Virus record (IMG/VR): IMGVR_UViG_3300030095_004873
Coordinates: 1 to 39,691 of that record
Source: a virus
Lineage: Duplodnaviria > Caudoviricetes
Direction: 5' to 3' (one strand)
Length of the DNA stretch: 39,691 bases
Under the pieces are notes generated by a model that did no database searches, had not been told where the DNA came from, and was given only the letters and a program-made list of their open reading frames with translations. The position numbers and the translations under genes were made by a program. Positions 4,247 through 28,940 of the stretch are shown here, piece after piece. Position 1 is the stretch's first letter; each line of letters begins with the position of its first letter.

Positions 4247-5374
4247 ATGGAATTAAAAGTAAGAGCTGTAGAAGGCAACGAAAACAAATCAAAAGCTGAA
4301 ATAGAAGAACAACTTCTAAACAAGCATGAAGAAGAATTAAAACAAGAAGAGCCACAAGCAGTTGAAGAAACTGAAAAAGTGGTAGAGGAACAACCTCAAA
4401 CAGAGGATGAAAGTAAAACTCCCTCATCAGAGTTAAATGATGAAGACGTTCTTTCTTTTTTGAAGAATAGATATGACAAAGAAATAAATTCAGTTGATGA
4501 ACTTTTTACAGAAAAAGAAGTAAATGAACCATTACCTGAAGATGTTTCTGCGTATTTAAAGTACAAGCAAGAAACTGGTCGTGGTATCGATGATTTCTAT
4601 AAATTACAAAGAAATTATGATACTATGGAAGATGAGGCTGTACTTGCTGACTATATTGCAACAAACGAAGAAGGTTTAGATGCAATAGATATTCAAGATA
4701 TCATGGAGGATAAATTTGGCTTTGATGAAGAGTTAGATGAACCGAAAGATATTAAGAAGAAAAAGTTAGCTAAAAAACGAGAACTCGCAAAGGCGAAGAA
4801 GTTTTTTAATGAACAAAAAGATAAGTATAAAATTCCTCTTGAGTCAAGTGGGGGTGGATTATCAGAAGATCAAGAAAAACAACTTAATGCTTATAAAGAG
4901 GCTCTTGAGAAATCGAAGACTGTTGAAGAGGCAAATGCAAAAAAGAGAAACTATTTTACAGAAGAAACTAAAAAAGTTTTTTCCAACGATTTCAAAGGTT
5001 TTGATTTCGCTGTTGGTGAAGATAGTTTTACTTATAAGCCAGGAACTACAGAGGAATTGTTTAATGTCCAAAACGACTTTAACAACTTTGTAAAAAAGTT
5101 TGTAGATGATAGTGGAATGATATCAGATGTAAAATCTTATCATAAAGCTTTATCAGTTGCAAGTAATCCTGACAAATTTGCCAAACACTTTTATGACTTA
5201 GGTATGTCACAGGCTGTAGAAAATGTTTCTAAAAAATCTAAAAACATTAATATGGATGTGAGAAAAACCCCAAGTTATGTAACAAAGGATGGATTAAAAA
5301 TTCGTGCTATGCAAAACAAAAGTGACAACGATAGTGGTAGAGGACTCAAAATTAGAAGTATTAAAAAAATGTAA
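4247..5374 (+). CDS. Putative capsid scaffolding protein
   Basis: 375 aa, very acidic N-terminus, helical/coiled-coil character, basic C-terminal tip; lies between portal and MCP. Confidence 0.7.
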   Translation: MELKVRAVEGNENKSKAEIEEQLLNKHEEELKQEEPQAVEETEKVVEEQPQTEDESKTPSSELNDEDVLSFLKNRYDKEINSVDELFTEKEVNEPLPEDVSAYLKYKQETGRGIDDFYKLQRNYDTMEDEAVLADYIATNEEGLDAIDIQDIMEDKFGFDEELDEPKDIKKKKLAKKRELAKAKKFFNEQKDKYKIPLESSGGGLSEDQEKQLNAYKEALEKSKTVEEANAKKRNYFTEETKKVFSNDFKGFDFAVGEDSFTYKPGTTEELFNVQNDFNNFVKKFVDDSGMISDVKSYHKALSVASNPDKFAKHFYDLGMSQAVENVSKKSKNINMDVRKTPSYVTKDGLKIRAMQNKSDNDSGRGLKIRSIKKM

Positions 5375-5395: not shown

Positions 5396-6862
5396 ATGGC
5401 AGTAAATGTAGCCCCTGGTTTTGATTTGCAACCAAGTAGTCAGCAAGTACCGCTTTCTACAAATTATATTACAGACTTCAATTTCTTGAATCAGTATTTA
5501 CCTGATACATTTGAAAAAGAGTTTGAAAGATATGGCAATCGATCTATAGCATCCTTCCTAAGAATGGTAGGAGCTGAAATGCCTTCTAACTCTGACCTTA
5601 TTAAATGGGCAGAGCAAGGAAGATTACACGTTAAATATCAATCTTGTACTTCAGGTGCAGCAGCAGCAGCACTTACTGGAGTATGGACAGTACCTAACAA
5701 CATCTCTAACTTTAACCCTGCATTAGCTGGAACACCAAATTCTGCAGCACTTAGAGTTGGACAAACTGTAATGATTTCTGATAGAACTGCAGGTTCAAAC
5801 CTCAGTAATAAAGGAATTGTAACTGTTGGACCAGGTTCTGGTGGTAACGCAGTAAACCAAGTAACTATCGCTTACTATGAGGCTGGAGGCCAAGCAGTAG
5901 CGGCGGGAGTAGCTTGTGATATTTTCGTATATGGTTCTGAATTTAACAAAGGAACTAATGGAATGGTAGGTTCTCTTGAAGCTGATGACTTCATCTTTGA
6001 CAACAAGCCAATTATTATCAAGGACAAATACAATGTATCTGGTTCTGATATGGCTCAAATCGGATGGATTGAAGTTACTTCAGAAAATGGAGCATCTGGA
6101 TATTTATGGTATCTAAAGTCTGAACACGAAACAAGACTAAGATTCGAAGATTACTTAGAAACTGCAATGATTGAAGCAGTTCCTGCAGAAGCAGGTTCTG
6201 GTGCTGGTGACTTCTTACAAGGAGTTGGAGCTGGTGCGTCTGCGGCAAACCTTAATGGTTCTGATGGTATCTTCTTCGTAGTAGGAGCAAGAGGTAATGT
6301 ATATGGTGGAGGTAATCCAGCAACATTAGCTGACTTTGACTCTATTATTTCAAGATTAGACAAGCAAGGTTCTATTGAAGAAAATGTAATTTTCTTAAAC
6401 AGAAACTTCTCATTTGACATAGATGATATGTTAGCTGCTCAGAACTCTTATGGAGCTGGTGGTACATCATATGGTTTATTTGACAATGATGAAGAAATGG
6501 CTCTTAATCTTGGATTCACTGGATTCAGGAGAGGCTATGACTTCTACAAGTCAGACTGGAAATATCTAAACGATCCTACAATGAGAGGTGGTATCGTAGG
6601 TGGAAAAGTAAATGGACTATTAGTCCCTGCTGGTTCTACTACAGTATACGATCAAATCTTAGGTAAAAACGCTAAGAGACCATTCTTACATGTAAGATAT
6701 AGAGCTTCCGAAACTGAAGACAGAAGATATAAAACTTGGATCACTGGTTCTGCTGGTGGAGCAAGAACTTCTGACTTAGATGCGATGGAAGTAAACTTCT
6801 TGAGTGAGAGAGCTGTATGTACTTTAGGTGCAAACAACTTCTTCTTATTCCAAGATGCTTAA
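5396..6862 (+). CDS. Major capsid protein
   Basis: 488 aa with strongly biased, high-expression-like codons (TTC, AAC, GAC, GCT), followed by a strong terminator. N-terminal YLPDTFEKEFERYGNR...WAEQGRLH resembles MCPs of crAss-related flavobacterial phages. Confidence 0.85.
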   Translation: MAVNVAPGFDLQPSSQQVPLSTNYITDFNFLNQYLPDTFEKEFERYGNRSIASFLRMVGAEMPSNSDLIKWAEQGRLHVKYQSCTSGAAAAALTGVWTVPNNISNFNPALAGTPNSAALRVGQTVMISDRTAGSNLSNKGIVTVGPGSGGNAVNQVTIAYYEAGGQAVAAGVACDIFVYGSEFNKGTNGMVGSLEADDFIFDNKPIIIKDKYNVSGSDMAQIGWIEVTSENGASGYLWYLKSEHETRLRFEDYLETAMIEAVPAEAGSGAGDFLQGVGAGASAANLNGSDGIFFVVGARGNVYGGGNPATLADFDSIISRLDKQGSIEENVIFLNRNFSFDIDDMLAAQNSYGAGGTSYGLFDNDEEMALNLGFTGFRRGYDFYKSDWKYLNDPTMRGGIVGGKVNGLLVPAGSTTVYDQILGKNAKRPFLHVRYRASETEDRRYKTWITGSAGGARTSDLDAMEVNFLSERAVCTLGANNFFLFQDA

Positions 6863-8049: not shown

Positions 8050-8083
8050 AAAGGGGGTAAAAAATTTACCCTCTTTTTTTTTT
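8050..8083 (+). terminator. Intrinsic terminator
   Basis: AAAGGGGGTAAA-aaa-TTTACCCTCTTT stem (one G-U pair) running into a T10 tract. Confidence 0.85.
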
Positions 8084-14781: not shown

Positions 14782-15987
14782 ATGGCTGGAACTATAGGAA
14801 CATATTATTTTGATGGTACAAGCTTTGCAAATGCAAGTATGCTTTACACTGATGCATCTCTTTCAACAGTTGCACCAAATGGATATTATACGCAAAACGA
14901 TATAATAAGACAATTAGTTGGAGGACCTGGTAACCCTGTGTTATTACAAGCACAAGCATGTGTATCCTGTAGTGTACCCTGTGGATCTGGTGTTAGTGGT
15001 AATGGTGGAACAGGGAAATACTTATTAACAATGAATTTAGGAAATTCAACTGGTGCAGTTAAAGTAACTTTTAATCCAGCAAGTATACCTGATAAATGCT
15101 CGTGGACTTATGATTCAGTTACAAGAAGCGAATACTCTTCTGCGACTGAAGGATATTTACAGGGAGTTATTGGAACAGTATCATCAGGAAATTCTTGTAG
15201 TGGCTTACCTTTAACTAATGCAAATGGTAGTAATGGACAAACAACAACTGGAGCAACTTATTTATATGATGCGGGTAGTAACTCTTTTGTAAATCAAGGT
15301 ACACCAGCAACATTAGGACCTTATGCTAATCAAGCTGCGGGTGGTATAGATTTAACTACTAATGCACCAGGTAACTGTATTATGGTTGTACCAAAACCAA
15401 ATGCTACTCCAGAAACAGTAGATTTTGTAATTGAAGGACCATGTGGTAGTACAGGTTGGAATATTTCAGTTTTATGTCCTGTTGCACTAACAAGTTTTAC
15501 CGCAAGTGCGGGAGCTGGAACTCAGCAATTAGCATGTGCACAAGATCACACTACTAATACATATTATAATATGCCAGTGGCGGGAACTGCGGGTAATCCA
15601 GCAGTAACAGATTGGATATTTACTGATGCAAATGGAGTGAATAAAGCTGCAGATAATTATTATAAAATAAGCAGCAATCAAGAGATGCATGTTGTAAATG
15701 GTGTGTTACAAGGAATTAGTCTTTGTGTTTCATCTTATCTTTCAAGTGCAATGGGAGTGTTTAATGATTTCTGTGGTGGCACAGCACCTGGACCTCCAAG
15801 TCAAACATATTATCATACTGGATCTGGTTCACTACCAGTTGCAAATGATTTTGTATATAGCAATCCTCAAGGGACTGTTGCTTTATCCGATGGTTATTAT
15901 TATTTAGGAGGAGTATCTCCTAATAGATATGTTATTAGAGTAGTCGGAGGTAATGGACAAGTATCATCAAATCAATTATGTAATTAA
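14782..15987 (+). CDS. Gly/Thr/Cys-rich tail-associated protein (putative receptor-binding/adhesion)
   Basis: 401 aa with three copies of a TYY...YY...C module also found at the muzzle C-terminus. Confidence 0.65.
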   Translation: MAGTIGTYYFDGTSFANASMLYTDASLSTVAPNGYYTQNDIIRQLVGGPGNPVLLQAQACVSCSVPCGSGVSGNGGTGKYLLTMNLGNSTGAVKVTFNPASIPDKCSWTYDSVTRSEYSSATEGYLQGVIGTVSSGNSCSGLPLTNANGSNGQTTTGATYLYDAGSNSFVNQGTPATLGPYANQAAGGIDLTTNAPGNCIMVVPKPNATPETVDFVIEGPCGSTGWNISVLCPVALTSFTASAGAGTQQLACAQDHTTNTYYNMPVAGTAGNPAVTDWIFTDANGVNKAADNYYKISSNQEMHVVNGVLQGISLCVSSYLSSAMGVFNDFCGGTAPGPPSQTYYHTGSGSLPVANDFVYSNPQGTVALSDGYYYLGGVSPNRYVIRVVGGNGQVSSNQLCN

Positions 15988-15988
15988 T

Positions 15989-16771
15989 ATGGCAACTTAT
16001 ACACTAACATATACAAATAATTCAGGAGTCGATGGAAGAGGTGGATGGCCATCCTTCTATTCGTTTCAACCTGAATTTATGATTGGAATGAATAGTTATT
16101 TTTACACTTTTAGTGGAGGAAATATTTTTAGACACAACACTAATAATAATAGAAATGAATATTATGAAGTTCCAGGAAACTTAGCACCTTCTTCTATCAC
16201 AAGTGTATTTAACCCTCGACCTATAAAAGATATAAAACTATTTAAAACCATGTCTTTTGAAAGTAATGCTGCATGGTCTTGTACACAATTAGCTACTGAC
16301 TTGAGTGCGGGTTCTATGTTAGGAACATACTTTGAACAAAAAGAGGGAGAGTGGTTTACATTTATTAGAAATAATGAAGGAACAATTAATTGGAGAGAGA
16401 GATCTGCAAATGGTATTGGGGCGTGTGCTTCAGTACAAGGTCCTACTGCAGCGACTATAGTAGGATTTAATTCACCAGTAGGAAGTATTATAAGTATAGG
16501 TGATTTAGTATATAAAGGTACAAATCCACCAGTATTAGCAGGAACAGTAACTGCAATTGATAACACTGCACCTGATTTTAGTATCACTATTGATGCTACA
16601 CTTCCAGCAGTTGCACCAGTTCAAGGTGATTTTATAGCTTATATTAAAAATAGTGTTGCTGAATCTCATGGAGCAAGAGGATATTATATGGAGTTTACAT
16701 TATCTAATGCATTAACATCAGCAGTAGAGTTATATTCTGTCGGTAGTAGTGTGATGAAAAGTTATCCATAG
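15989..16771 (+). CDS. Tail protein resembling the C-terminal part of crAss-like muzzle proteins
   Basis: 260 aa from ATG 15989, 1 nt after the upstream stop. Motifs TLTY...GWPSFYSFQPEFMIGMN, KLFKTMSFES, KEGEWF and GARGYYM. Confidence 0.7.
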   Translation: MATYTLTYTNNSGVDGRGGWPSFYSFQPEFMIGMNSYFYTFSGGNIFRHNTNNNRNEYYEVPGNLAPSSITSVFNPRPIKDIKLFKTMSFESNAAWSCTQLATDLSAGSMLGTYFEQKEGEWFTFIRNNEGTINWRERSANGIGACASVQGPTAATIVGFNSPVGSIISIGDLVYKGTNPPVLAGTVTAIDNTAPDFSITIDATLPAVAPVQGDFIAYIKNSVAESHGARGYYMEFTLSNALTSAVELYSVGSSVMKSYP

Positions 16772-17206: not shown

Positions 17207-17821
17207 ATGGCAGGATTTACTACATTGGCGGCAGGAGTCGGAGCAGCAACAGCACTTGGTGGCGGTTTAATGTCTTTCGGTCAGTCCGCAAAAGCATCTA
17301 AACAAGCGGCAGATGCACAAAAAAAAGCTGATAGGCTAATGGCAGAAGCTCGAAAAAATGCACAGAAAGATGTATACGCAAAACTACAAGTTCCATTAGA
17401 TGCATTTAACGAACAATATAGACAAACAAACCAAGCTGCAACTGCTGGTATACAAGCACTACAAGAAGGTGATGCAAGAACACTTGCGGCTGGTATAGGA
17501 CAAATCTCAGGAGCAGTTAATGAAGCTACAGAGAAAACAAGAATTGATAAAGCAGAAGCTTTATTTGGTTTAGAAAAAGACAAAGCAACTTCTCAAGAAA
17601 ATATTAAACAACAACTAATAGCCATGGATTCGGGTGCTGCAAAAGATGCTGAAATGAAAGCAGCAGATAAAGAAAAAATTGCCGCTTCAAGTTTACAACA
17701 AGGTATTAAACAAGCTGGAAAAGGAGCAGTAGGTGTAGCAGGTATGGCGAAGGGATTGTTTGGTGATGAAGACTTGACCCCTGAAGAGTTAGACGCTTTA
17801 TTTAAATACTTAAAGGATTAG
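17207..17821 (+). CDS. Small DNA-ejection / internal virion protein
   Basis: 204 aa. Hydrophobic Gly/Ala N-terminus, Ala/Gln coiled coil and Gly-rich C-terminus, typical of pilot/ejection proteins. Confidence 0.6.
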   Translation: MAGFTTLAAGVGAATALGGGLMSFGQSAKASKQAADAQKKADRLMAEARKNAQKDVYAKLQVPLDAFNEQYRQTNQAATAGIQALQEGDARTLAAGIGQISGAVNEATEKTRIDKAEALFGLEKDKATSQENIKQQLIAMDSGAAKDAEMKAADKEKIAASSLQQGIKQAGKGAVGVAGMAKGLFGDEDLTPEELDALFKYLKD

Positions 17822-17842
17822 TAGGTAGTTAAAAAAAAATTT

Positions 17843-19864
17843 ATGGCATTACAAGAAAAATCATTTCAACCACAAGACTATCAAAAGTATGTACAGAGAG
17901 GTCCTGATCATTATGTGAACTGGGAGAAGATGTCTCAAGATGTCACTAAACTTTTTACAGATGAGGCTACTCGTAGAGAAAATGTAAAGGCAGATATTGA
18001 TGAAAGAACTCAATCGTTATATGATCAGTTAGCAGAAGTTGAAGTAAATAAAGATGGAAAATGGAGTGATGAAGTTTTATCATCTGCTAATCAAATTCGT
18101 AAAGCTTTAGGCACTTACAATTCTTTATTAAAAAAAGGAGCTATATCTGTTACAGAATATAAAACTCAAATGGAAAGAGTTAAAGGACAAATGTCTGAGC
18201 TTAATATAATTACTAAAGAATTAGGTTCTACTTATGATTTACATCAAGGTAGATTAGCGGTTGGAGAGAATGGAGAAGTATTAGCAGCTCCTGATGAGAT
18301 AGCGGTATTTAATTCTGCAAGTGGATATGGTAAATTAAAAAATACCAAGATATATATCGATCCAGTTACTATGAATGCATTTATGTATAAATTAGATGAT
18401 GATGGTAAGATTCCAGACTTTACAAAAAACCCTGAGAAATTTTTAGCAGTAAATAATTCAAGAGCAATTTTAAATTATACTAACGACAGAAGTCAATATG
18501 TTATATCTGATGTATCAAAAAATTATGTTGATGACATAGGTAAATTTGTTTCTGAAAGTTTACAGAGATTTAGTGGTGAATTTAGAGATGGTACTTATGT
18601 GTTGAGTGAAGAAGGTATTAGAGCTATGAATAATTCAGGATTCGGTGATGATATCAATGCCGAAATGAGTGATTTAAAAAACATAATATTTGAAAAACTA
18701 ACTGCTGAGGGAGACAAAGGTCTTGCTAATACCATCTCTACATTAAATGGTGACTACATAATGGCAATGAGTGAGGATGAGTTTAAGAAAAAAGGTGGTA
18801 CAGATTTAAAATATTTTATTAAAATAGATCCTGATGCTGCAGATGGAATGACATATGAATTTAGTAGTGATGCTGCAAGAGATGCGGCTATTGCTGAGAT
18901 AAAAGAAAATGTTGGTGAAAATGTTGAGTTGATGGTAGGTAAGTCTATTAAAGTAAGTAATCCTACATATGAACCTGGTGAAAGTGCTGTTCAAGCAGGT
19001 GAAGGTGCTAACAATGATCTTGCTGCAGGTTACTTTAGAGATTTAAAAAATATAGTAGGTGGTGGTGAAGGAAACTTCAGTGCATCAGTAGAAGACTTAA
19101 AGGATAAAGCTAATGCAAGATTAGCTGATTCAGGTTCTCAAATTACTGATATAACAAGAGAGAAAAACTTTATTGAAATTGTAATAGTAGATTCAAAAGG
19201 TAATAGAACTGTTAAAAAAATAGATAGGTTTGAGACAGATGATAAGGGAGCTTATACAGATGTAAAAATTCCTGACTCAGTAATATATCAAAAACTTAAC
19301 ACTGAATTAAGACCTTCAGGTATGGATGACTCATTCGAGTCTTTAGAAACTGCAGCTACTGATGGAGGGTTTAATTATGACTTTGAAGAGGGTACATACT
19401 TTGGGGATGAAACACGAACCAATGTTGCTCCTTACACAGAAAAAACTCATAAACCTTTTAGCGATACATTTACTGTAGGTGATGATGCAAAGGCGGTAAA
19501 ATATTCAAATACTTTGCAAAGTAAAATTAGTGCAACAGGTTATAGTAATCAATTGAGTCAGTTTAAATCACATTTACCTGGTGAGTTATCTTCAGCTTTA
19601 AGCAAACAAGGTATAGATATTAAGCCAAGTGGCTTTGTAATTACAGGTACAGATTTAACAGGTGGTAGTAATGAATTTAAAATTTCATACACTAACCCTT
19701 ACAATGGTAAGAAAAGTAGCAAAACATTCTTATTTAATACTCATAATTCATCTACAGACAATACTACTGATATTATGAATGCAATGGATACTGTTATGAA
19801 TGATATTATAGCAGAGTCAAACAGAACAAAAGGAGGAACAGAAAATAACCAAGGAGCACCATAG
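17843..19864 (+). CDS. Putative internal virion / ejection protein
   Basis: 673 aa, helical N-terminal half, located between the small ejection protein and the giant protein. Confidence 0.55.
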   Translation: MALQEKSFQPQDYQKYVQRGPDHYVNWEKMSQDVTKLFTDEATRRENVKADIDERTQSLYDQLAEVEVNKDGKWSDEVLSSANQIRKALGTYNSLLKKGAISVTEYKTQMERVKGQMSELNIITKELGSTYDLHQGRLAVGENGEVLAAPDEIAVFNSASGYGKLKNTKIYIDPVTMNAFMYKLDDDGKIPDFTKNPEKFLAVNNSRAILNYTNDRSQYVISDVSKNYVDDIGKFVSESLQRFSGEFRDGTYVLSEEGIRAMNNSGFGDDINAEMSDLKNIIFEKLTAEGDKGLANTISTLNGDYIMAMSEDEFKKKGGTDLKYFIKIDPDAADGMTYEFSSDAARDAAIAEIKENVGENVELMVGKSIKVSNPTYEPGESAVQAGEGANNDLAAGYFRDLKNIVGGGEGNFSASVEDLKDKANARLADSGSQITDITREKNFIEIVIVDSKGNRTVKKIDRFETDDKGAYTDVKIPDSVIYQKLNTELRPSGMDDSFESLETAATDGGFNYDFEEGTYFGDETRTNVAPYTEKTHKPFSDTFTVGDDAKAVKYSNTLQSKISATGYSNQLSQFKSHLPGELSSALSKQGIDIKPSGFVITGTDLTGGSNEFKISYTNPYNGKKSSKTFLFNTHNSSTDNTTDIMNAMDTVMNDIIAESNRTKGGTENNQGAP

Positions 19865-19866
19865 AT

Positions 19867-22800
19867 ATGAATAATAAATATTTAGAAGAACTTTATGGGT
19901 GGATTAGTACAACTGATAGAACCTTTAATGAAAAGTATACACTTGATGAGTTTGTTGAAAATATGGATTCAGAAGATTATGCTATACAAATGTACTCCTG
20001 GATATCAGAACAAGATCCTACCTTTCAAGACCGATACACAGTTGACCTTTTTGTTGAAAAGGTAAAAAAAAAAGATTTATCTCCGCAAGATGCTATTACA
20101 GAAAGCATGGAAGATGCTTCACTTTTGGATGGTTCTCAAGGGATGGGCTCTCAGCAAATAGCTGGACCTACTGTAAACCAAGATTCTTCCGAAGAAGTTA
20201 TTCCAATAAATAAAGAGTTTAAAATTAATGAAGGTGAAGTTGATGAAGAAACTTATAATGAGTATACAGATGCTCAAGACCAACGACAACAAATAGCTGA
20301 CGATCCTTTTGAAAATGCATTAAGTTATGTGAATGCAGAATTGGTATCCCAAAATGAAAAGAATTTATCTGTAGATTTAAAATATAGATTTGGTAGATAT
20401 GGGTTTGAATTTACTCCTGATATTATTGGTGATAATATTACTATTACATCTAAACAAATAGATCCTAATACAGGAAAGCCTTACACTTTAGAGATTGAAG
20501 CAGACAGTAATGATGAAGCACTTAATCTTCAGACTGCACAAAACATACAAGATTTTATAAGAAAATATCAAAAAGTCGACACAAGGTTTGAAGATGTTTC
20601 TGGTCAACTAATAAATCAAGATAAAAAATTTCAATCAGAAGCTGAGATTAAAAATGCATTTAAAATTTTAGATGGAGAATCCAAAGCTTTTAATAGTCGA
20701 GTCCAAGAATATATAAAGAAAAGAAGAATATATCTTAATAAAAAAGCTCAAGCAGATGGGATGACTCAAGCCCAAATAAACACTGACATTGGACAAGCAT
20801 TTTTAAAAGAATTAGAACAAGTAAGGGTTTCGTTAGATGCAGAAAAGGAAGAGCTTTATGCAGAAGATGTCAGCCTTGCTAATAGAGGTTACGAAATAGA
20901 TTTATTAGTAGGAAAGTATTCCGAAATGAATGCGGGTAAAGGAACACGTTTAGGTGCACTGTGGGATGGATTTACTACAGGTGTTTCCAGATTATCCGAA
21001 ACACCTATTAATTATTTAATAGATGGTGTTGTAGAAGTAGCTCCTTTTAGTTTTCTTGTAGGGTCAACCCAGTATGAAAAATCATTTGCTCAAAGAGCTG
21101 AAGAGTTAGGATATTTCGATCCTTCTGATTTGGATAAACCTTTTGCATCTTTTGAAGCTTTCAAAGAATCTTTTTCATCTGATCAAATAAGTGAAATTGA
21201 CAACTACATAGAAGATAGGGTTAAGAAAAGTCTAAAATATGGCAACATATCTTTTAATGATGATGGTTCTATTACAACTGATAGAGCAAGACTTGGTAGT
21301 AGATATTCAGAACAAATGTTCAAGTCAGATGTAAAAGAATTAACTTCAGATGGTATGCTTCCTTTAGTAAGAAAAGGATATGATATGATGATGGGTGATG
21401 ATGATACTACTCCAGAATATTCAGAATTGATGAGAGAAGGTTTTTGGGGTGGAGCAATGTTAGGTTTGTCAGAATCAATACCAGCTTTTTTACCACTTCC
21501 AGGTGGATGGATATCTCGTACAGGAAGAATGTTTGCACAAGTGGACTCTCACTTGACTGATGAAATGATGAATAACCCAAACTTTGCAGACATACCAGAG
21601 TCAGAAAGAAAAGCTGTAGCTATGCCAATTGCAATAGTTGTGGGTGCTTTAGAGTATGTAGGTTTTAGAAACATAATGAATCAAAAAGGTTTGTTAAATA
21701 AATATGTTTTAAAAGGTTTACAACTTTATAAAGGATCACATCAAACCAAAGGATTAACATTCAGGCAAATAGTATTAAATGAAATACAAAATGATATTAA
21801 AAAAGGAGTATTGATTGTGGGTGCTGCAGGTCTTGCAGAATTTGAAACAGGGGTAGCTCAAGAGATAGCTGATATCAGTGGTAAAAGTATTTATAATGAA
21901 ATAAAAGGAACAGAGATGTTTCAAACACCTGATAGTTTTAAGGATGCATTAGGTCAAATCATTTATGCTGGAGGGCAAGAAATGGTAGGAGGATGGGTTA
22001 TGGGTACAATACCAGGTGTTGCGGCTGGGTTTGTAGGTAATGATTATACTGCTATTTCAGATCCTATGTTTGAAACTTTCGAGTCAATCAGTAGTGATAG
22101 AACTTATTTCACAGCATTTGTTCAAAAAATAAAAAATGATATTAATAGTGGAACTATAGATAAAAAAGAAGGAAAATCTTTATTAGATGCGGTAAATGCA
22201 TTGAATGGTATCGTAGATAAAGTACCTCAAGATATCGATGTAAAGCTTAGAAAAAAAGCAGTAGGTTTGTTATATAATAAATCTTTATTACTACAAAAAA
22301 GAGATAAACTTGCACCAGAACTAAGAGGTAAGGTTGATAAAGAAATAGGTAAGATTGACAAAGAGTTAAAAAAATTAATAGATGGAGCAGTTTCTGTTAA
22401 AGGAACTGAAGCTAATATAGAACAAGAAGAAGAAGTTAGTGATGAACAAGCTACTGCATATATAAATAAAGAAAATGAAACACGATCGAAGTTAGGATTA
22501 CCTGCTATAAAGATAACACCAGAGTCGATTAAAAATGCTAAATTAGAACTTAAAAAAGAAAAAGATGCCAGTAAAGAGCAAAGCCCAGTTCAGGAAACTG
22601 GCGAAGTTGAATCCCAGTCTACTGAAGAAGTGGATGAAACAGTATCCAGTGGAGTACAAGAGTCTGCCGGAACGAGTAACCAAAAAGGTACAGAGCAAGG
22701 TAAAACTACCGCGCCGAAAAAGACGGAAGTAGAAGAAGAGGTCTCTGACATCACTGAGTTTGTTGGTGAAACAGAAACTGATGGTGTAGTAGATCCTACT

Positions 22801-25800
22801 ACAGAGCTTGGTGTTCAAGAAGAGGTAGAGTTTGAGACTGAGAATGTAACTAAAGATGGTAAAGTTAAAAGAAGTAAAGCAACTAAACCAGTTGATACAA
22901 AAGTAAAAGGTAAATTTAATAGTGTTATTAAGTTTGCATCTCGTGCTGCAAGTGCAGTTAAAAGAATATTACCTAAAGTAAATATAATTCTACATGAGTC
23001 TTCTGAAAATTTTAAACAAGCCACTGGTAAAACTGGTAAAGGTTTCTTTAATCCTACCAATCAAACTATACATATAGATTTAACAAAAGGAAGTAACAAG
23101 ACAGTAGCTCACGAAATGTTTCATGCCTTATTAGTAAACTCTGTTAAGACTAATCCTCAAGCAAGAGAATTAACAAAAAGAATGGTTAAAGCTGTGGCAA
23201 AAGCTAAAGGTTTGACTAAAGAACAAAAACAAAAAATAGATACATTTATATCTAACTATGATGCCGATATTCAAAACGAAGAAAAGTTAGCAGAAATATT
23301 AGGGGTTTTAGCTGATGGCTACACTAAACTGGATGCGCCTACAAAAAGTAAAATAAGACAGTGGATAGAAAAGATAGCTGCAAGATTAGGATTAAATCTT
23401 TCTACATTTACTAAATCAGATCAAGATATAATTGATTTAATGAATACTGTTGCTCAAAAAATTAGAAGTGGAGAAACTATAACTAAAAAAGATGTTGCTG
23501 CACTTAAGACTAAAACAAAACCTAAACCTAAAAAACAAACACCTAAAAAGAAAAAAGGTGATCAGTTAGATGTATTTGAAGGTAGAGAACAAAAAGAAGC
23601 TAAACCAATAGCAGAAAGATATATGATGAGTTTAAGAGGGTTTATTAGTCCAAGAGCCTTATATGATACATCAAGATTAAAAAGAGAGTTAGAGAACATA
23701 GGAATGAGATTGGGTACTGCAAAGAATGAGTTTACTGGTGAGATAACAGGTTACTATTTCCAAAAAGTTTCAAAAAGAGGTAATCCATATTTCTATAATC
23801 CTTTTGGTAGACAACAAAAAGATATTGACAAAGCTGGAAGTGGAATTTCTAACATCGCAGAGCTTATAGTTAAACTAAAAGAAAATAACTTTACACCTGA
23901 AGCTATTAAAAAATATTTATTAGAAAATAAAAAAATAGCCTCTAACATAGTAAATAAACTTATGAACACCAGCACTTTTGTGTTAAGCAGAATGCCAGAG
24001 TCTTTTCAAAAATTAAAAGGAGGATTTCTTACTGGAATAAAATTATTTAACAAAATAGCTAAGTATAAAGATAGGTTGTCAAACAACAATACAACTCCTT
24101 TTGGAAAAAAAATGGTGGAGTTAAAACAAGAGTTAGAACAATTAAAAGCACAGAAAAACAAAAAAAGAGATATTGCAAAAACACAATTAGCAATAGATAA
24201 ACTAAAAGCTAAAAATCCAGGAGCTAAAATCTATAAACTCACTAACACTGAGATAATGAGTAAGACTATTGAGTTTTTGAGAAAGCAACCAGAGTATATG
24301 GCTGTCAAAGACAAGAAAGGATTATCATTGCTACAAGCTCAAATGGAGATGCAGTTAGAAAAAGCTTTCTATCAAGCTCCAACTAAAGATATGGCTAATC
24401 AAATGAGATTAGCACGAGCTATAGTCAATATACAAACAAAAAATGTACAGAGTTTAGAGAGGGTAAAAGCAAATTTAAGAAACTTTATAAGAGTGGTATT
24501 CCCTGCAGATATGTATACTAAACCTGAAACATTAGAGTTAGTTCAAGAAGTTCAAAATGCAACTTTAGAAAATATAAAAGAAGTAAAATCTAAGTTAATG
24601 GATATGGCAACAACAAAAATTGTCCAAGGCTTAGAAACAAAAATTAAAAGTTTACTAAATAAAAATTTTACTTCGATAGAAGGAGGTAGAGCTAAAGCGA
24701 GAATTGTTGACTCTCAAACCATAAAGCTTTTAGAACAAGTGAAAAGTATTTTTAATACTGTACAAAGTATAAAAGATAATCCTAAAAGTATAGAAAACTT
24801 AGTGCAGAAAAATTTAGACAAAATAGCTAAATTAAAAACTGAAGCAGTTCAAGATGAAAATACTTTTGCAGAACTAACTGCATTAGAAATGATTAATGAG
24901 TATGCCAATGCACAGTTGGAAGATGATTCGAGTTTTGAAAAAGTGGCAGGTTTAAATAGAGTTTTTGAAACACTTAATGAAACCCTTACAGAAGGTAGAA
25001 ACACATTAGAAGCACAAAAGAGAAGAAGATATCATACTTATTTAAAAGATATTGAAATAGCTTGGGAAAGCATTACTGGTAACAAAATAGAATTGTTGAT
25101 ACAAAATCCTAATTTTGATTCACAACTTCCAGAAGATAAGAGTAATCTACGAATGATAGTAAATCCTGATGCTAAAAAACTTATGAAGGAATATCAGAAC
25201 TTAACTGATGCTAAAAAGAGACAAGCAAAGTCTTTACCTGCTCGTATGATAAATAGTGTTACTTCAGCATTTACAAGAACACAGATAGCTAATATTTTAG
25301 ACTTAACTACTCTTGTTGAATATATTACTAAAATTCCTGGTGAATTGTTTAAAGGACCATTTCAAGATATAACTGCAAGACTGGTTGATGATGCATCAAT
25401 TATACATAAAGGATTTGGTATTCAAGATAGATTTGCAATAGAGTCACAACTTGATAAGATATATGGTAAAGGTTGGATGGGTAAAATGGAGAACGATGCT
25501 ATACCAAGAGATACTGGTATAGCTGCAGACTTAGAGAGATACAATAAGGCTAAAGCAATGTATCAAAGAAATAAGACTGATAAAAATAAATTTAAAATGG
25601 ATGCTTTACAATTACATTTATCTCCTTATCAAATAGCATATCATTTAAATCAGTATAAAGATCCTGCAAACCATGCTTCATATGAAGCAAAATATGGTAA
25701 AGACTATAAAAGAGTGATGAAAGAAATGAGAGAATACATGGAAGCCAATAATCCTGAAGCCATTGCTTTAGCAGATTATATGGTGAATGAAGCTTATCCA

Positions 25801-27516
25801 AAAATGTATGAAAGGTACAACAAAACATATAGAGAAGTATTTGGAATGGATTTGCCTTGGAGTAAAAATTATGGTGGTCAAATATTTAGAGAAGGAGTAG
25901 AGCCAAGTGAAATTGATTTATTAGCCGAAGGAAAAGGAGCATTTGCTGCAATGGCAGCACCCGCATCTTCCAAGGTTAGAAGCAAAAACAAAATACCTAT
26001 TCAAGACATGGACTTGATGAGAAGTTTTATAGCATATCGAGAACAAATGAATTGGTTTGCTGCATATTCACCAGTTTTAAATAGAATGAATAAGTTATTT
26101 AAAAACCCAAACATAGCAAAAGCTATACAATCACAATATCCAAGTGGTTTTTATAATATGATAATAAAACAAATAGATACCTTAGCAACCAAAGGTCTTA
26201 GTAATACTGCAGGAGAACAATGGTTAAATGCTGCAACAAACTACTTTGTGGTAGGTAGACTGGGTGTAAATCCGACTATCTATTTAAAACAGTTAGTGTC
26301 TTTTCCTACCTATGCCAATGATATAGGTTATATAAACTGGACAAAAAATGCAATCCAAAGTATTGGTGAGATTAGAAGTTTAATGAAAGAGGTATTAGAT
26401 AACTCTATATATTTACAAGACAGATATGGTAAATCTATTATTAAAAACTTAGAAAATTTTGTACCTACTACTGATTATGAATCTAAACTTACTCAAGGAA
26501 ACTTTCAAAAATTACTTGATGCAACTATGTATCTTGTAAAACAAGGTGATAAAGGTGCAATAATGATTGGTGGTATACCTCTTTATAGATATCATAAAAA
26601 TAAAATAAGAAAAGAAAATCCAGGCTTAACTGATCAACAAGTAATGGCAAAAGCTATTAGAGAGTTTGAAATAGCAACAAGACAAACACAACAGTCTACT
26701 GATTTACAAAACAGAGACTACACACAAACCTCTGGTATATTTGCAAGAACTATGAATATGTTCAAAACATCGATTAGATCGTATTTAAGAAAAGAAATTA
26801 TATATTTTAGAAATAGTAATAAAATGATAAGATCGTTTGGTAAAGAAGGAAGAGGTACATTGGGACAAAACTTAAGAGGTTTGCTTACATATCACACAGT
26901 ATTACCAGTATTTTTTCAATATCTATCGGCTGGGCTTCCAGGAGTGTTAGCTCCTTGGGATGAAGAAGATAAAACTGATCTTGCAAGAGCAGTAATAATA
27001 GGAAATTTTAATGCATTGTTTGTAACAGGAGACATACTTGCTATGTTTGCTGATGCTTTCACTGGTAAACCTTGGGAAGCAGATGTAACAGATGTACCAT
27101 TAATAGAAGTAGCAGAATTAATATCTAAACACGTCCAAAGAATAGCAAGAACTAAAGATGAAGATAAAAGGAATGACTTAATCACAAAGTTTATGATGGA
27201 AGATGTTCCAAGTTATTTTGGTTTAAACCTTAAGTCTCTAAATAGATGGAGAAAAAACATACAACAAATAATGGAAGATCCTTCAGATCCTAAAGAGGTG
27301 TTACTAAGATTATTTAACTTTAGTGATTTCCAAATTAAAAGTAATGAGGAGAGAAATAAAAAGAAAACAAAATCATTAAGCAAAAGAGATTTAAAAAGAA
27401 TGTTCCCTGATCTATACGAAGAAATGCAAGTACCAGATGATGTTCAACAACAAATTGATGAGATTGAGGCTGAAATTAAAAGAGTAGAAGAAGAAGCGAA
27501 AGAACAAATACAATGA
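19867..27516 (+). CDS. Giant (2549 aa) polyvalent-type internal virion protein with zincin-like metallopeptidase motif
   Basis: Last large gene of the virion operon. TVAHEMFHALL (HExxH) with downstream EEKLAE; Gly-rich hydrophobic helices in the N-terminal third; helical C-terminal region; no RNAP DxDxD motif seen. Confidence 0.75.
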   Translation: MNNKYLEELYGWISTTDRTFNEKYTLDEFVENMDSEDYAIQMYSWISEQDPTFQDRYTVDLFVEKVKKKDLSPQDAITESMEDASLLDGSQGMGSQQIAGPTVNQDSSEEVIPINKEFKINEGEVDEETYNEYTDAQDQRQQIADDPFENALSYVNAELVSQNEKNLSVDLKYRFGRYGFEFTPDIIGDNITITSKQIDPNTGKPYTLEIEADSNDEALNLQTAQNIQDFIRKYQKVDTRFEDVSGQLINQDKKFQSEAEIKNAFKILDGESKAFNSRVQEYIKKRRIYLNKKAQADGMTQAQINTDIGQAFLKELEQVRVSLDAEKEELYAEDVSLANRGYEIDLLVGKYSEMNAGKGTRLGALWDGFTTGVSRLSETPINYLIDGVVEVAPFSFLVGSTQYEKSFAQRAEELGYFDPSDLDKPFASFEAFKESFSSDQISEIDNYIEDRVKKSLKYGNISFNDDGSITTDRARLGSRYSEQMFKSDVKELTSDGMLPLVRKGYDMMMGDDDTTPEYSELMREGFWGGAMLGLSESIPAFLPLPGGWISRTGRMFAQVDSHLTDEMMNNPNFADIPESERKAVAMPIAIVVGALEYVGFRNIMNQKGLLNKYVLKGLQLYKGSHQTKGLTFRQIVLNEIQNDIKKGVLIVGAAGLAEFETGVAQEIADISGKSIYNEIKGTEMFQTPDSFKDALGQIIYAGGQEMVGGWVMGTIPGVAAGFVGNDYTAISDPMFETFESISSDRTYFTAFVQKIKNDINSGTIDKKEGKSLLDAVNALNGIVDKVPQDIDVKLRKKAVGLLYNKSLLLQKRDKLAPELRGKVDKEIGKIDKELKKLIDGAVSVKGTEANIEQEEEVSDEQATAYINKENETRSKLGLPAIKITPESIKNAKLELKKEKDASKEQSPVQETGEVESQSTEEVDETVSSGVQESAGTSNQKGTEQGKTTAPKKTEVEEEVSDITEFVGETETDGVVDPTTELGVQEEVEFETENVTKDGKVKRSKATKPVDTKVKGKFNSVIKFASRAASAVKRILPKVNIILHESSENFKQATGKTGKGFFNPTNQTIHIDLTKGSNKTVAHEMFHALLVNSVKTNPQARELTKRMVKAVAKAKGLTKEQKQKIDTFISNYDADIQNEEKLAEILGVLADGYTKLDAPTKSKIRQWIEKIAARLGLNLSTFTKSDQDIIDLMNTVAQKIRSGETITKKDVAALKTKTKPKPKKQTPKKKKGDQLDVFEGREQKEAKPIAERYMMSLRGFISPRALYDTSRLKRELENIGMRLGTAKNEFTGEITGYYFQKVSKRGNPYFYNPFGRQQKDIDKAGSGISNIAELIVKLKENNFTPEAIKKYLLENKKIASNIVNKLMNTSTFVLSRMPESFQKLKGGFLTGIKLFNKIAKYKDRLSNNNTTPFGKKMVELKQELEQLKAQKNKKRDIAKTQLAIDKLKAKNPGAKIYKLTNTEIMSKTIEFLRKQPEYMAVKDKKGLSLLQAQMEMQLEKAFYQAPTKDMANQMRLARAIVNIQTKNVQSLERVKANLRNFIRVVFPADMYTKPETLELVQEVQNATLENIKEVKSKLMDMATTKIVQGLETKIKSLLNKNFTSIEGGRAKARIVDSQTIKLLEQVKSIFNTVQSIKDNPKSIENLVQKNLDKIAKLKTEAVQDENTFAELTALEMINEYANAQLEDDSSFEKVAGLNRVFETLNETLTEGRNTLEAQKRRRYHTYLKDIEIAWESITGNKIELLIQNPNFDSQLPEDKSNLRMIVNPDAKKLMKEYQNLTDAKKRQAKSLPARMINSVTSAFTRTQIANILDLTTLVEYITKIPGELFKGPFQDITARLVDDASIIHKGFGIQDRFAIESQLDKIYGKGWMGKMENDAIPRDTGIAADLERYNKAKAMYQRNKTDKNKFKMDALQLHLSPYQIAYHLNQYKDPANHASYEAKYGKDYKRVMKEMREYMEANNPEAIALADYMVNEAYPKMYERYNKTYREVFGMDLPWSKNYGGQIFREGVEPSEIDLLAEGKGAFAAMAAPASSKVRSKNKIPIQDMDLMRSFIAYREQMNWFAAYSPVLNRMNKLFKNPNIAKAIQSQYPSGFYNMIIKQIDTLATKGLSNTAGEQWLNAATNYFVVGRLGVNPTIYLKQLVSFPTYANDIGYINWTKNAIQSIGEIRSLMKEVLDNSIYLQDRYGKSIIKNLENFVPTTDYESKLTQGNFQKLLDATMYLVKQGDKGAIMIGGIPLYRYHKNKIRKENPGLTDQQVMAKAIREFEIATRQTQQSTDLQNRDYTQTSGIFARTMNMFKTSIRSYLRKEIIYFRNSNKMIRSFGKEGRGTLGQNLRGLLTYHTVLPVFFQYLSAGLPGVLAPWDEEDKTDLARAVIIGNFNALFVTGDILAMFADAFTGKPWEADVTDVPLIEVAELISKHVQRIARTKDEDKRNDLITKFMMEDVPSYFGLNLKSLNRWRKNIQQIMEDPSDPKEVLLRLFNFSDFQIKSNEERNKKKTKSLSKRDLKRMFPDLYEEMQVPDDVQQQIDEIEAEIKRVEEEAKEQIQ
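20064..20213 (+). other. Candidate programmed -1 frameshift/transcriptional slippage site (A10) and 46-codon trans-frame extension
   Basis: GTA AAA AAA AAA GAT (A run 20064-20073). The -1 frame is closed by TGA at 20055-20057, then open to TAA at 20211-20213, with no ATG. Confidence 0.55.
22565..22732 (+). CDS. Overprinted +1-frame basic microprotein (55 aa) nested in the giant gene
   Basis: MPVKSKAQFRKLAKLNPSLLKKWMKQYPVEYKSLPERVTKKVQSKVKLPRRKRRK*. ATG in A-rich context, locally GC-richer atypical codons, and resemblance to MP(F/Y)KSxAQ...W...LPE(R/K)V small phage proteins. Confidence 0.65.
   Translation: MPVKSKAQFRKLAKLNPSLLKKWMKQYPVEYKSLPERVTKKVQSKVKLPRRKRRK
23581..23822 (+). repeat. 17-bp in-frame direct repeats (GREQK / GRQQK) 225 bp apart in the giant gene
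   Basis: ggtagagaacaaaaaga (23581-23597) and ggtagacaacaaaaaga (23806-23822), 16/17 identical. Confidence 0.65.
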
Positions 27517-28292: not shown

Positions 28293-28940
28293 TTAATCCA
28301 TTGATGTTAATAACAACGTCCCAACTGTTGCATCAATCTTTTTGATGGTTCTGTATAATAATTTTGATTTTTGTTTTACTTCACTGCGATCTTTCAAAGA
28401 AGAATCTTGACCTAAGTTACAATATAAATTACAATCTATATGTAACAAAGTGTCAATTTTTTTTTTAGGCGTCCAAGTTTTGTAATTTAAGATTTTATCT
28501 ATATCTTCTACTGAATATCTACAATCATCTTTTGCCCAAACCATATTTTTTAACCTTTTTTTTAAATCGTTATTGTTCAAATTAAGAATTTCATTTTGTT
28601 TTTCCAAGTTTTTTACTCTTTTTTGCAACAAATTTAGAATATTTTTAGGCTTTTTTTCTTCACTTCCCTTCCATTCTAATAAAATTTGATTGTATTTTAC
28701 CTCTAAAGATGGGTTAGCCCTAACCATATATGGCCATTCTTTTAAGGCATGAATAATGGTAGCATGGTTTTTACTAAAGATTCGAGCTATGTCTTTTAAT
28801 TTATATGCACCATACTTTCTAAGTACAGTATACATAAGTGCTCTTGCTTCTATGTATTCTATTTTTCTACTGTTGCTAAAAATGTCAAGCAACTCGAGAT
28901 GTTCGCTGGTGAGATCCAGTAACAATTGTATTCGTTTCAT
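28293..28940 (-). CDS. DnaA C-terminal (domain IV)-like HTH protein with coiled coil and extra C-terminal domain
   Basis: IFSNSRKIEYIEARALMYTVLRK...LKDIARIFSKNHATIIHAL matches the DnaA domain IV pattern (SR...ARQ.AMY...IG..F.RDHTTV.HA). Confidence 0.7.
   Translation of the reverse strand: MKRIQLLLDLTSEHLELLDIFSNSRKIEYIEARALMYTVLRKYGAYKLKDIARIFSKNHATIIHALKEWPYMVRANPSLEVKYNQILLEWKGSEEKKPKNILNLLQKRVKNLEKQNEILNLNNNDLKKRLKNMVWAKDDCRYSVEDIDKILNYKTWTPKKKIDTLLHIDCNLYCNLGQDSSLKDRSEVKQKSKLLYRTIKKIDATVGTLLLTSMD

Follow-up and report, generated by a model that had tools for sequence, protein, structure and literature searches.

The DNA analysed here (a window of 39,691 nucleotides, IMG/VR record IMGVR_UViG_3300030095_004873) is part of a podophage genome, in which terminase, portal and virion genes were recognized by comparison with PHROGs (27 of the 53 ORFs were scanned). 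Its portal protein matches those of Elemovirus and Panino at 46–47%, and its terminase those of Elemovirus, Panino, Baltivirus, Bacelvirus, Callevirus and Gundelvirus at 33–47%. Since the closest cultured relatives, as judged from the portal and the terminase, infect Flavobacterium, Maribacter, Cellulophaga and Tenacibaculum, and a relative of the window (L188) sits within a contig of Flavobacterium caseinilyticum, the host of this phage is presumably a member of the Flavobacteriia. Elsewhere in the window, a 272-aa gene (15953–16771) matches the C-terminal domain of the crassvirus muzzle protein (PF25729, above the cut-off), and an intergenic T10 with the appearance of a terminator (8074–8083) follows a 105-aa ORF.

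A plus-strand ORF of 2549 aa (19867..27516; the giant gene) occupies the third place in what, by gene position, resembles the T7 gp14/gp15/gp16 cluster of virion cargo genes. The first gene of the cluster (17207..17821, plus strand; 204 aa) encodes a T7 gp14-like internal virion protein according to a weak match (phrog_805, E 1.2e-6; the score of 25.5 bits against PF24072 is below the cut-off of 27), and the second (17843..19864, plus strand; 673 aa) ends 2 nt before the ATG of the giant gene. The start codon of the second gene is closely preceded by an A9 run (17831–17839), which is also found in L004. The giant protein has no Pfam or PHROG match and lacks a DxDxD motif. A profile of it matched the giants of Gundel, elemoA and MW202828, and gave no match to those of phi18:3, phi19:3, phi13:2, phi38:1 and Panino; BLAST searches with its first 1000 aa, or with the gp14-like protein, retrieved no GenBank phage. 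The alignment of the gp14-like protein was too divergent for scanning. The term “ejection protein”, used for the giant in the preliminary description, may be apt in view of the gene order and of the annotation of phi18:3, whose gp120, gp121 and gp123, at the corresponding cluster positions, were annotated from virion MS/MS.

A run of ten adenines, the candidate slip site (20064..20073, plus strand; GTA AAA AAA AAA GAT), lies near the beginning of the giant gene and is the only run of at least ten A on the plus strand of the window. In translation, the region preceding it (19867..20064, plus strand) comprises two repeats of approximately 33 codons each, and N-termini similar to this one also occur in homologues. 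The −1 frame is closed by a TGA (20055..20057, plus strand) just upstream of the run and is open downstream of it for 46 codons, up to the TAA at 20211–20213 (20073..20213, plus strand). The run, the TGA, the open −1 frame and the lack of an ATG in it had been pointed out in the preliminary description and were confirmed in the sequence. In the −1 frame, KKK is followed by 46 residues forming a basic, aromatic tail (11 K/R, 1 D/E), and the predicted short product of 115 aa (69 + 46) would have both repeats in common with the giant. The +1 frame is open for 31 codons after the run (20066..20161, plus strand). The A10 of the window is genuine and not an assembly error; contigs of five public DNA runs (X3, X7, X8, X13 and X14), four of which are a possible source of the window DNA, cross it without a gap.

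In the giant gene, 12 of 2449 positions are followed by at least 46 open −1 codons; a second −1 gap, of 51 codons, is located at 21402–21560. Synonymous resampling of frame 0 gave a probability of 0.021 for the open −1 frame arising by chance, and of 0.089 for the +1 frame. It had also been noted previously that Asp and Glu codons in this region avoid a preceding T. The observation holds (0 of 9 in the overlap versus 120 of 341 elsewhere in the gene), but it is the open frame seen from another side and adds no independent evidence. Judged from the genome of the window alone, the open −1 frame is therefore modest evidence, and it is the relatives that decide. A second coding A10 is present in the window (28457–28466; CCT AAA AAA AAA ATT), within a minus-strand gene (28293–28940) encoding a DnaA C-terminal-like domain. 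Stops soon follow in the two shifted frames at this site, and the run is missing in all 14 of the homologues compared.

Relatives were collected without using the A run. Two protein motifs far from the run yielded 76 loci (from the best 80 of 202 matches), and a conserved 136-aa gene approximately 3 kb upstream yielded a further 80 + 18 (the 80 being the best 80 of 569), of which 25 were excluded, as their contigs end before or just past the start of the giant gene. The final set, including the window and 10 GenBank/RefSeq records, consisted of 160 genes, 137 of them distinct, which formed 107 clusters at 75% nucleotide identity; the start positions of L085 (Panino) and L156 were adjusted by hand. 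The clusters are mutually related, and the counts given below thus describe non-independent events.

A run of A9 or longer was found within the first 620 nt of the giant gene in 103 of the 107 clusters, and in 92 it is exactly A10 with the giant in frame. The conservation of poly-A among homologues, proposed earlier as a check, is thereby borne out. The 92 in-frame runs occur in two codon phases (74 NNA AAA AAA AAA and 18 NAA AAA AAA AAN), and the remaining clusters have A11 in frame (4), A9 in frame (3), an out-of-frame run (4) or no run (4). Among the cultured phages, elemoA_7-9A, phi38:1, Calle_2 and Gundel_1 carry A10 in frame, and the run occurs even in phages whose giant body is not matched by the profile of the window. 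The first KKK of the protein (before codon 160) is encoded entirely by AAA in 80 of 85 genes; beyond codon 200 this applies to 0 of 125 KKK, against 31% expected, and the 449,985 nt of downstream coding sequence contain not a single A10. Giant genes thus avoid such runs everywhere but here. These counts indicate that the A10 run is selected at the nucleotide level across the phage group.

In three loci (L089:16423–16520, L073:5353–5430 and L188:9616–9745) the N-terminus preceding the run (25–150 codons) has been swapped among unrelated repeat types, and the run and the tail have stayed. Four loci (L042, L099, L100 and L190) have neither a run nor a KKK at the start of the giant gene, and no standalone copy of the tail was detected in the DNA retrieved for them. 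To judge from these four run-less lineages, the cassette formed by the run and the tail can be lost.

The second check proposed earlier concerned the −1 frame in homologues, and it was found to be open for 16–50 codons in all 99 in-frame clusters, with a median of 33 against a null mean of 11.7. Entry into this frame would have to take place at the run, since 81 of 103 clusters have a −1 stop no more than 10 codons upstream of where the run ends, and since in 95 of 103 no ATG, GTG or TTG precedes the tail motif. That the −1 frame is initiated independently was rejected on account of this shortage of start codons and of the complete lack of Met among 3182 tail residues.

Substitution patterns were then compared between the frames. 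In 40 disjoint pairs, pN/pS within the overlap was 0.45 (0.34–0.57) for the −1 frame, 0.96 for frame 0 and 1.23 for +1, and in the flanks of the same pairs it was 1.12–1.18 for −1 and 0.61–0.68 for frame 0. With pairs picked by upstream identity alone and aligned as nucleotides, the −1 value was 0.66 (0.53–0.79, 41 pairs), or 0.57 (0.36–0.79) for 20 close pairs selected and aligned in the same manner. When the 41 pairs were aligned by the frame-0 protein, a procedure that favours frame 0 and mis-aligns distant tails, it rose to 0.92 (0.74–1.10), a value only slightly below the 1.22 and 1.48 of the flanks. In the overlap, frame-0 codon position 2, which is the wobble position of the −1 frame, is the most variable (0.194 versus 0.108 and 0.147), and in the flanks it is the least variable. 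The reduced variation anticipated in the preliminary description is therefore present, in that substitutions preferentially leave the −1 protein, and not that of frame 0, unchanged; it is weaker under the frame-0 protein alignment. The patterns indicate that, family-wide, the −1 frame is under purifying selection as a protein.

The +1 frame is open as well in the relatives (median of 38 codons versus 17 in the null). Its stops are depleted approximately sixfold in the overlap (41 in 3079 codons, compared with about 0.08 per codon in the flanks); this depletion is confined to the −1 overlap, and the background level returns right afterwards. A second hidden protein in the +1 frame was rejected as a candidate, since its pN/pS exceeds 1 in spite of the openness (1.02–1.23 in the overlap and 1.24 between the two stops). 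Slippage by the polymerase, the mechanism preferred below, would feed this frame as well.

It is hardly probable that no second protein is made, i.e. that the KKK and the acidic linker are features of the giant protein itself, or that the run and the sequence 3′ of it are a DNA or RNA signal, and that the open frame is a by-product. Such a reading is in keeping with the single-genome probability of only about 0.02, with the depletion of stops in the +1 frame and with the failure of the window tail to match the family profile (see below). However, a need of the protein cannot explain all-AAA coding (80/85 versus 0/125), nor does this reading account for the reversed variability of codon position 2 or for the motif residues of the tail, which vary synonymously in the −1 frame, and no RNA structure was found. 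A small second protein, made from the giant gene and missed by annotations, is very likely on the strength of these comparisons.

Selection on the −1 tail is weakly shown within the clade of the window itself. The window tail has diverged from the family and keeps only the second half of its motif, and a tail profile built without this clade gave no match to the tails of the window, L009, L012 and L013 (E up to 10); the same profile does retrieve the tails of Panino, phi19:3 and phi13:2, which had also been held out. Members L009–L013 have an identical GTA-A9-GAT site followed by 46–53 open −1 codons. Pairwise −1 ratios within the clade are 0.85–1.38, for distant pairs near saturation, and in two close pairs 3/6 and 3/6 changes are silent in −1 (frame 0: 4/12 in total). 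Of the strain substitutions, the two inside the overlap, G20141A and A20195G, leave the −1 protein unchanged and each alter an amino acid in frame 0; a further strain variant, T20211A, abolishes the −1 stop and lengthens the tail by three residues.

Across the relatives, the predicted short products are mostly 72–121 aa long. Both halves of the tail motif, [YF]G-hydrophobic...[WYF]xxG, are present in 68 of 103 clusters, and all four Gly codons are used for its two glycines, which amounts to synonymous variation in the −1 frame. The Arg/Gly richness of the tails is partly what an acidic frame 0 gives in −1. Structure prediction with AlphaFold2 was performed for the product of L048, whose contig has A11 and so reads the tail directly; the model has a helical N-terminus and a C-terminal β-hairpin (mean pLDDT 73). 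The window tail was modelled as three strands in a β-meander (pLDDT 67). The tails are thus predicted to encode a basic, aromatic β-hairpin or meander. Searches with the tail in Pfam, PDB sequences and the ESM Atlas returned nothing usable, a fold search with the L048 model was uninformative (best Z 4.0), and four copies of the L048 product obtained a score of 0.07 in a complex predictor. A weak profile match to an AP2-like repeat protein (P0136) was treated as compositional.

Run-length variants are present in public assemblies. An A9 occurs at the site in phi19:3 (L087:24250), phi13:2 (L088:24268), phi18:3 (L091:7507), phi46:3 (L092:8313) and Panino (L085:35386), and in the annotation of all five records the giant gene falls into two parts, a small ORF and a giant lacking its head. 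The Cellulophaga genomes of 2013 are reportedly 454 data. Since the Panino assembly is based on Nanopore Flongle reads (PMC11590407), and since the giant gene of phi46:3 has a second frame break (an A-rich stretch, L092:12758–13078, where it is annotated as two genes), the A9 of these five phages is probably a miscalled A10; in Gundel and Calle, which were sequenced with Illumina, the A10 is in frame. As probable miscalls, the out-of-frame A9 isolates were set aside as proof of two-way slippage. If the A9 were true, the giant itself would depend on a slip in these phages. Among the metagenomic contigs, L021 has an A12 (6193–6204) and L048 an A11 (5253–5263), both out of frame; in L048 the tail is read directly as a 78-aa ORF, and another frame break occurs downstream, so that an assembly error is possible.

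In addition, 46 of 67 profile matches are short database proteins equal in form to the predicted −1 product. All ten that were looked up are singletons, and tails of the −1 type and of the +1 type occur in nearly equal numbers (approximately 11 and 12 of 47, sorted by eye); for both reasons, these entries were rejected as evidence of expression. The short proteins, together with L048, L021 and the five A9 isolates, are also what would be expected if the run were a DNA-level switch, in which replication slippage generates A9 and A11 genomes and, by phase variation, the giant gene is silenced or its product altered. Such a switch is highly improbable: the entries looked up are singletons, the two tail types are about as frequent as each other, as homopolymer miscalls would predict, the long frame is intact in 99 of the 103 run-bearing clusters, and a genome making only the short product would lose its giant virion protein.

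Functional recoding at the run, by either polymerase or ribosome, is thus supported with considerable assurance by the sequence comparisons. The reading that we prefer, and consider rather likely, is that the A10 is a programmed RNA-polymerase slip site that gives a 115-aa product beside the giant. The slip would occur in transcription and would be made by the host enzyme: RNA polymerase would add one A at the A10 in a fraction of transcripts, ribosomes would consequently find themselves in the −1 frame, and ordinary translation would yield the 115-aa protein beside the 2549-aa one. Bacterial RNA polymerase is described as slipping efficiently on runs of at least 9 A or T, mostly adding bases (PMC5009743 and PMC6260861), and the constant feature of the site is the length of the run, not its codon phase. 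Three RNA runs were available as contigs, which drop minor variants; two of them cross the run without an indel.

The same second protein could instead be made by the ribosome on an unchanged A10 mRNA, through a −1 shift on A_AAA_AAA or through sliding on AAA codons, an alternative that we regard as unlikely, though with several points to its credit. The heptamer A_AAA_AAA is present in the window and in the run of every relative, in all phases. According to PMC5009743, several phage frameshifts need no stimulator, and PMC4363877 reports that ribosomes slide on iterated AAA codons and that coding sequences select against AAA runs, which agrees with the downstream 0/125. However, seven adenines would suffice for this heptamer, whereas the run has a fixed length of 10 in each of two phases, and the sliding measured in vitro with E. 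coli is slight on A9–A10 and strong from A11 (PMC4363877). A_AAA_AAG, the strongest E. coli frameshift heptamer (PMC5009743), is offered in only 4 of 99 clusters. Hairpins had been suggested at 20078–20119, but this segment folds like its shuffles (z −0.31), as does 20074–20133 (z −0.03), and over 103 clusters the 3′ structure, computed without pseudoknots, has a mean z of −0.14 with 6% under −2; a hairpin stimulator was accordingly dismissed. Bacteroidia ribosomes mostly ignore SD sequences (PMC10798248). Of the two mechanisms named in the preliminary description, polymerase slippage is a better fit than canonical −1 ribosomal frameshifting and the more likely, since no stimulatory hairpin was found and A_AAA_AAG is rare.

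As to function, the short product would most simply be a small protein packaged along with the giant, made at a set ratio to it and binding either DNA or a partner in the cargo. Tentatively, the N-terminal repeats that it shares with the giant may let it enter the virion as the giant does, its basic, aromatic β-tail may bind DNA or a cargo partner there, and the slip rate may set the ratio of short to giant protein. A broader proposal, which we consider possible, is that Bacteroidota podophages across several families share one recoding cassette even where their giants no longer align: slippage of the host RNA polymerase on the A10 would swap a multi-thousand-residue body for a small basic β-hairpin, and the result would be a virion protein, so far unannotated, that plays a part of its own in genome packing or ejection. 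If so, programmed transcriptional slippage would be used by a dsDNA phage for building its virion. The findings point to a missing small protein in a large and abundant group of aquatic phages, they flag the annotation of the giant gene in five reference genomes (phi13:2, phi18:3, phi19:3, phi46:3 and Panino), and the claim is directly testable in the cultured models phi38:1, Calle, Gundel and elemo.

No description of the feature was found in the open full-text literature searched; the main texts of the papers on Panino, the North Sea flavophages and the crAss001 structure do not contain the word “frameshift”. If the slip is transcriptional, it would represent a mode of recoding that was not found in this literature for virion genes of tailed phages.

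Behind the tail genes, three genes follow one another in order of increasing size, an arrangement that resembles T7 gp14–16 and crAss001 gp45–50 (PMC10172136). The first gene of the cluster is weakly T7 gp14-like; the giant of the window has no family match.

The −1 frameshift of lambda G/GT and the +1 frameshifts in the capsid and tail genes of Listeria phage PSA (PMC5009743) resemble the predicted situation in that a phage structural-module gene yields a pair of proteins sharing their N-terminus in a fixed proportion. T7 gene 10, for which a slip site is likewise named, is a further case. However, those shifts are ribosomal, occur towards the 3′ end of short genes and lengthen the product, whereas the A10 lies in the 5′ part of a gene for a giant cargo protein, would shorten the product and is defined by run length. 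With its site at codon 66–69 of a 2549-codon ORF and its predicted shortened product, the locus differs from a tail chaperone of the lambda G/GT type, where two short overlapping ORFs precede the tape-measure gene and the product is lengthened by the shift.

Closer parallels are offered by bacterial genes. Slippage is known at Shigella flexneri spa13 (A10) and mxiE (T9) (PMC5009743, PMC6260861), and spa13, which belongs to a protein-delivery machine, likewise carries its A10 early in the gene, at about codon 60; a functional second frame is joined by slippage there. It is, though, a gene of a bacterial plasmid and not of a phage, and its slipped product is the long, needed one, whereas in the phage the unslipped product is the giant and the slipped one is predicted to be short. 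In Thermus thermophilus dnaX, transcriptional slippage on a 9-nt run gives tau and gamma (PMC5009743). As is predicted here, a long ORF with an internal homopolymer gives rise, through slipped transcripts, to a shorter product with the same N-terminus. Slippage is demonstrated in dnaX, whereas in the phage giant gene we infer it from the sequence. Both shifted frames of dnaX stop almost at once, so that gamma is a truncation; the −1 frame of the phages, in contrast, would add a conserved domain of 16–50 residues, at a run located near codon 25–150 of a virion gene.
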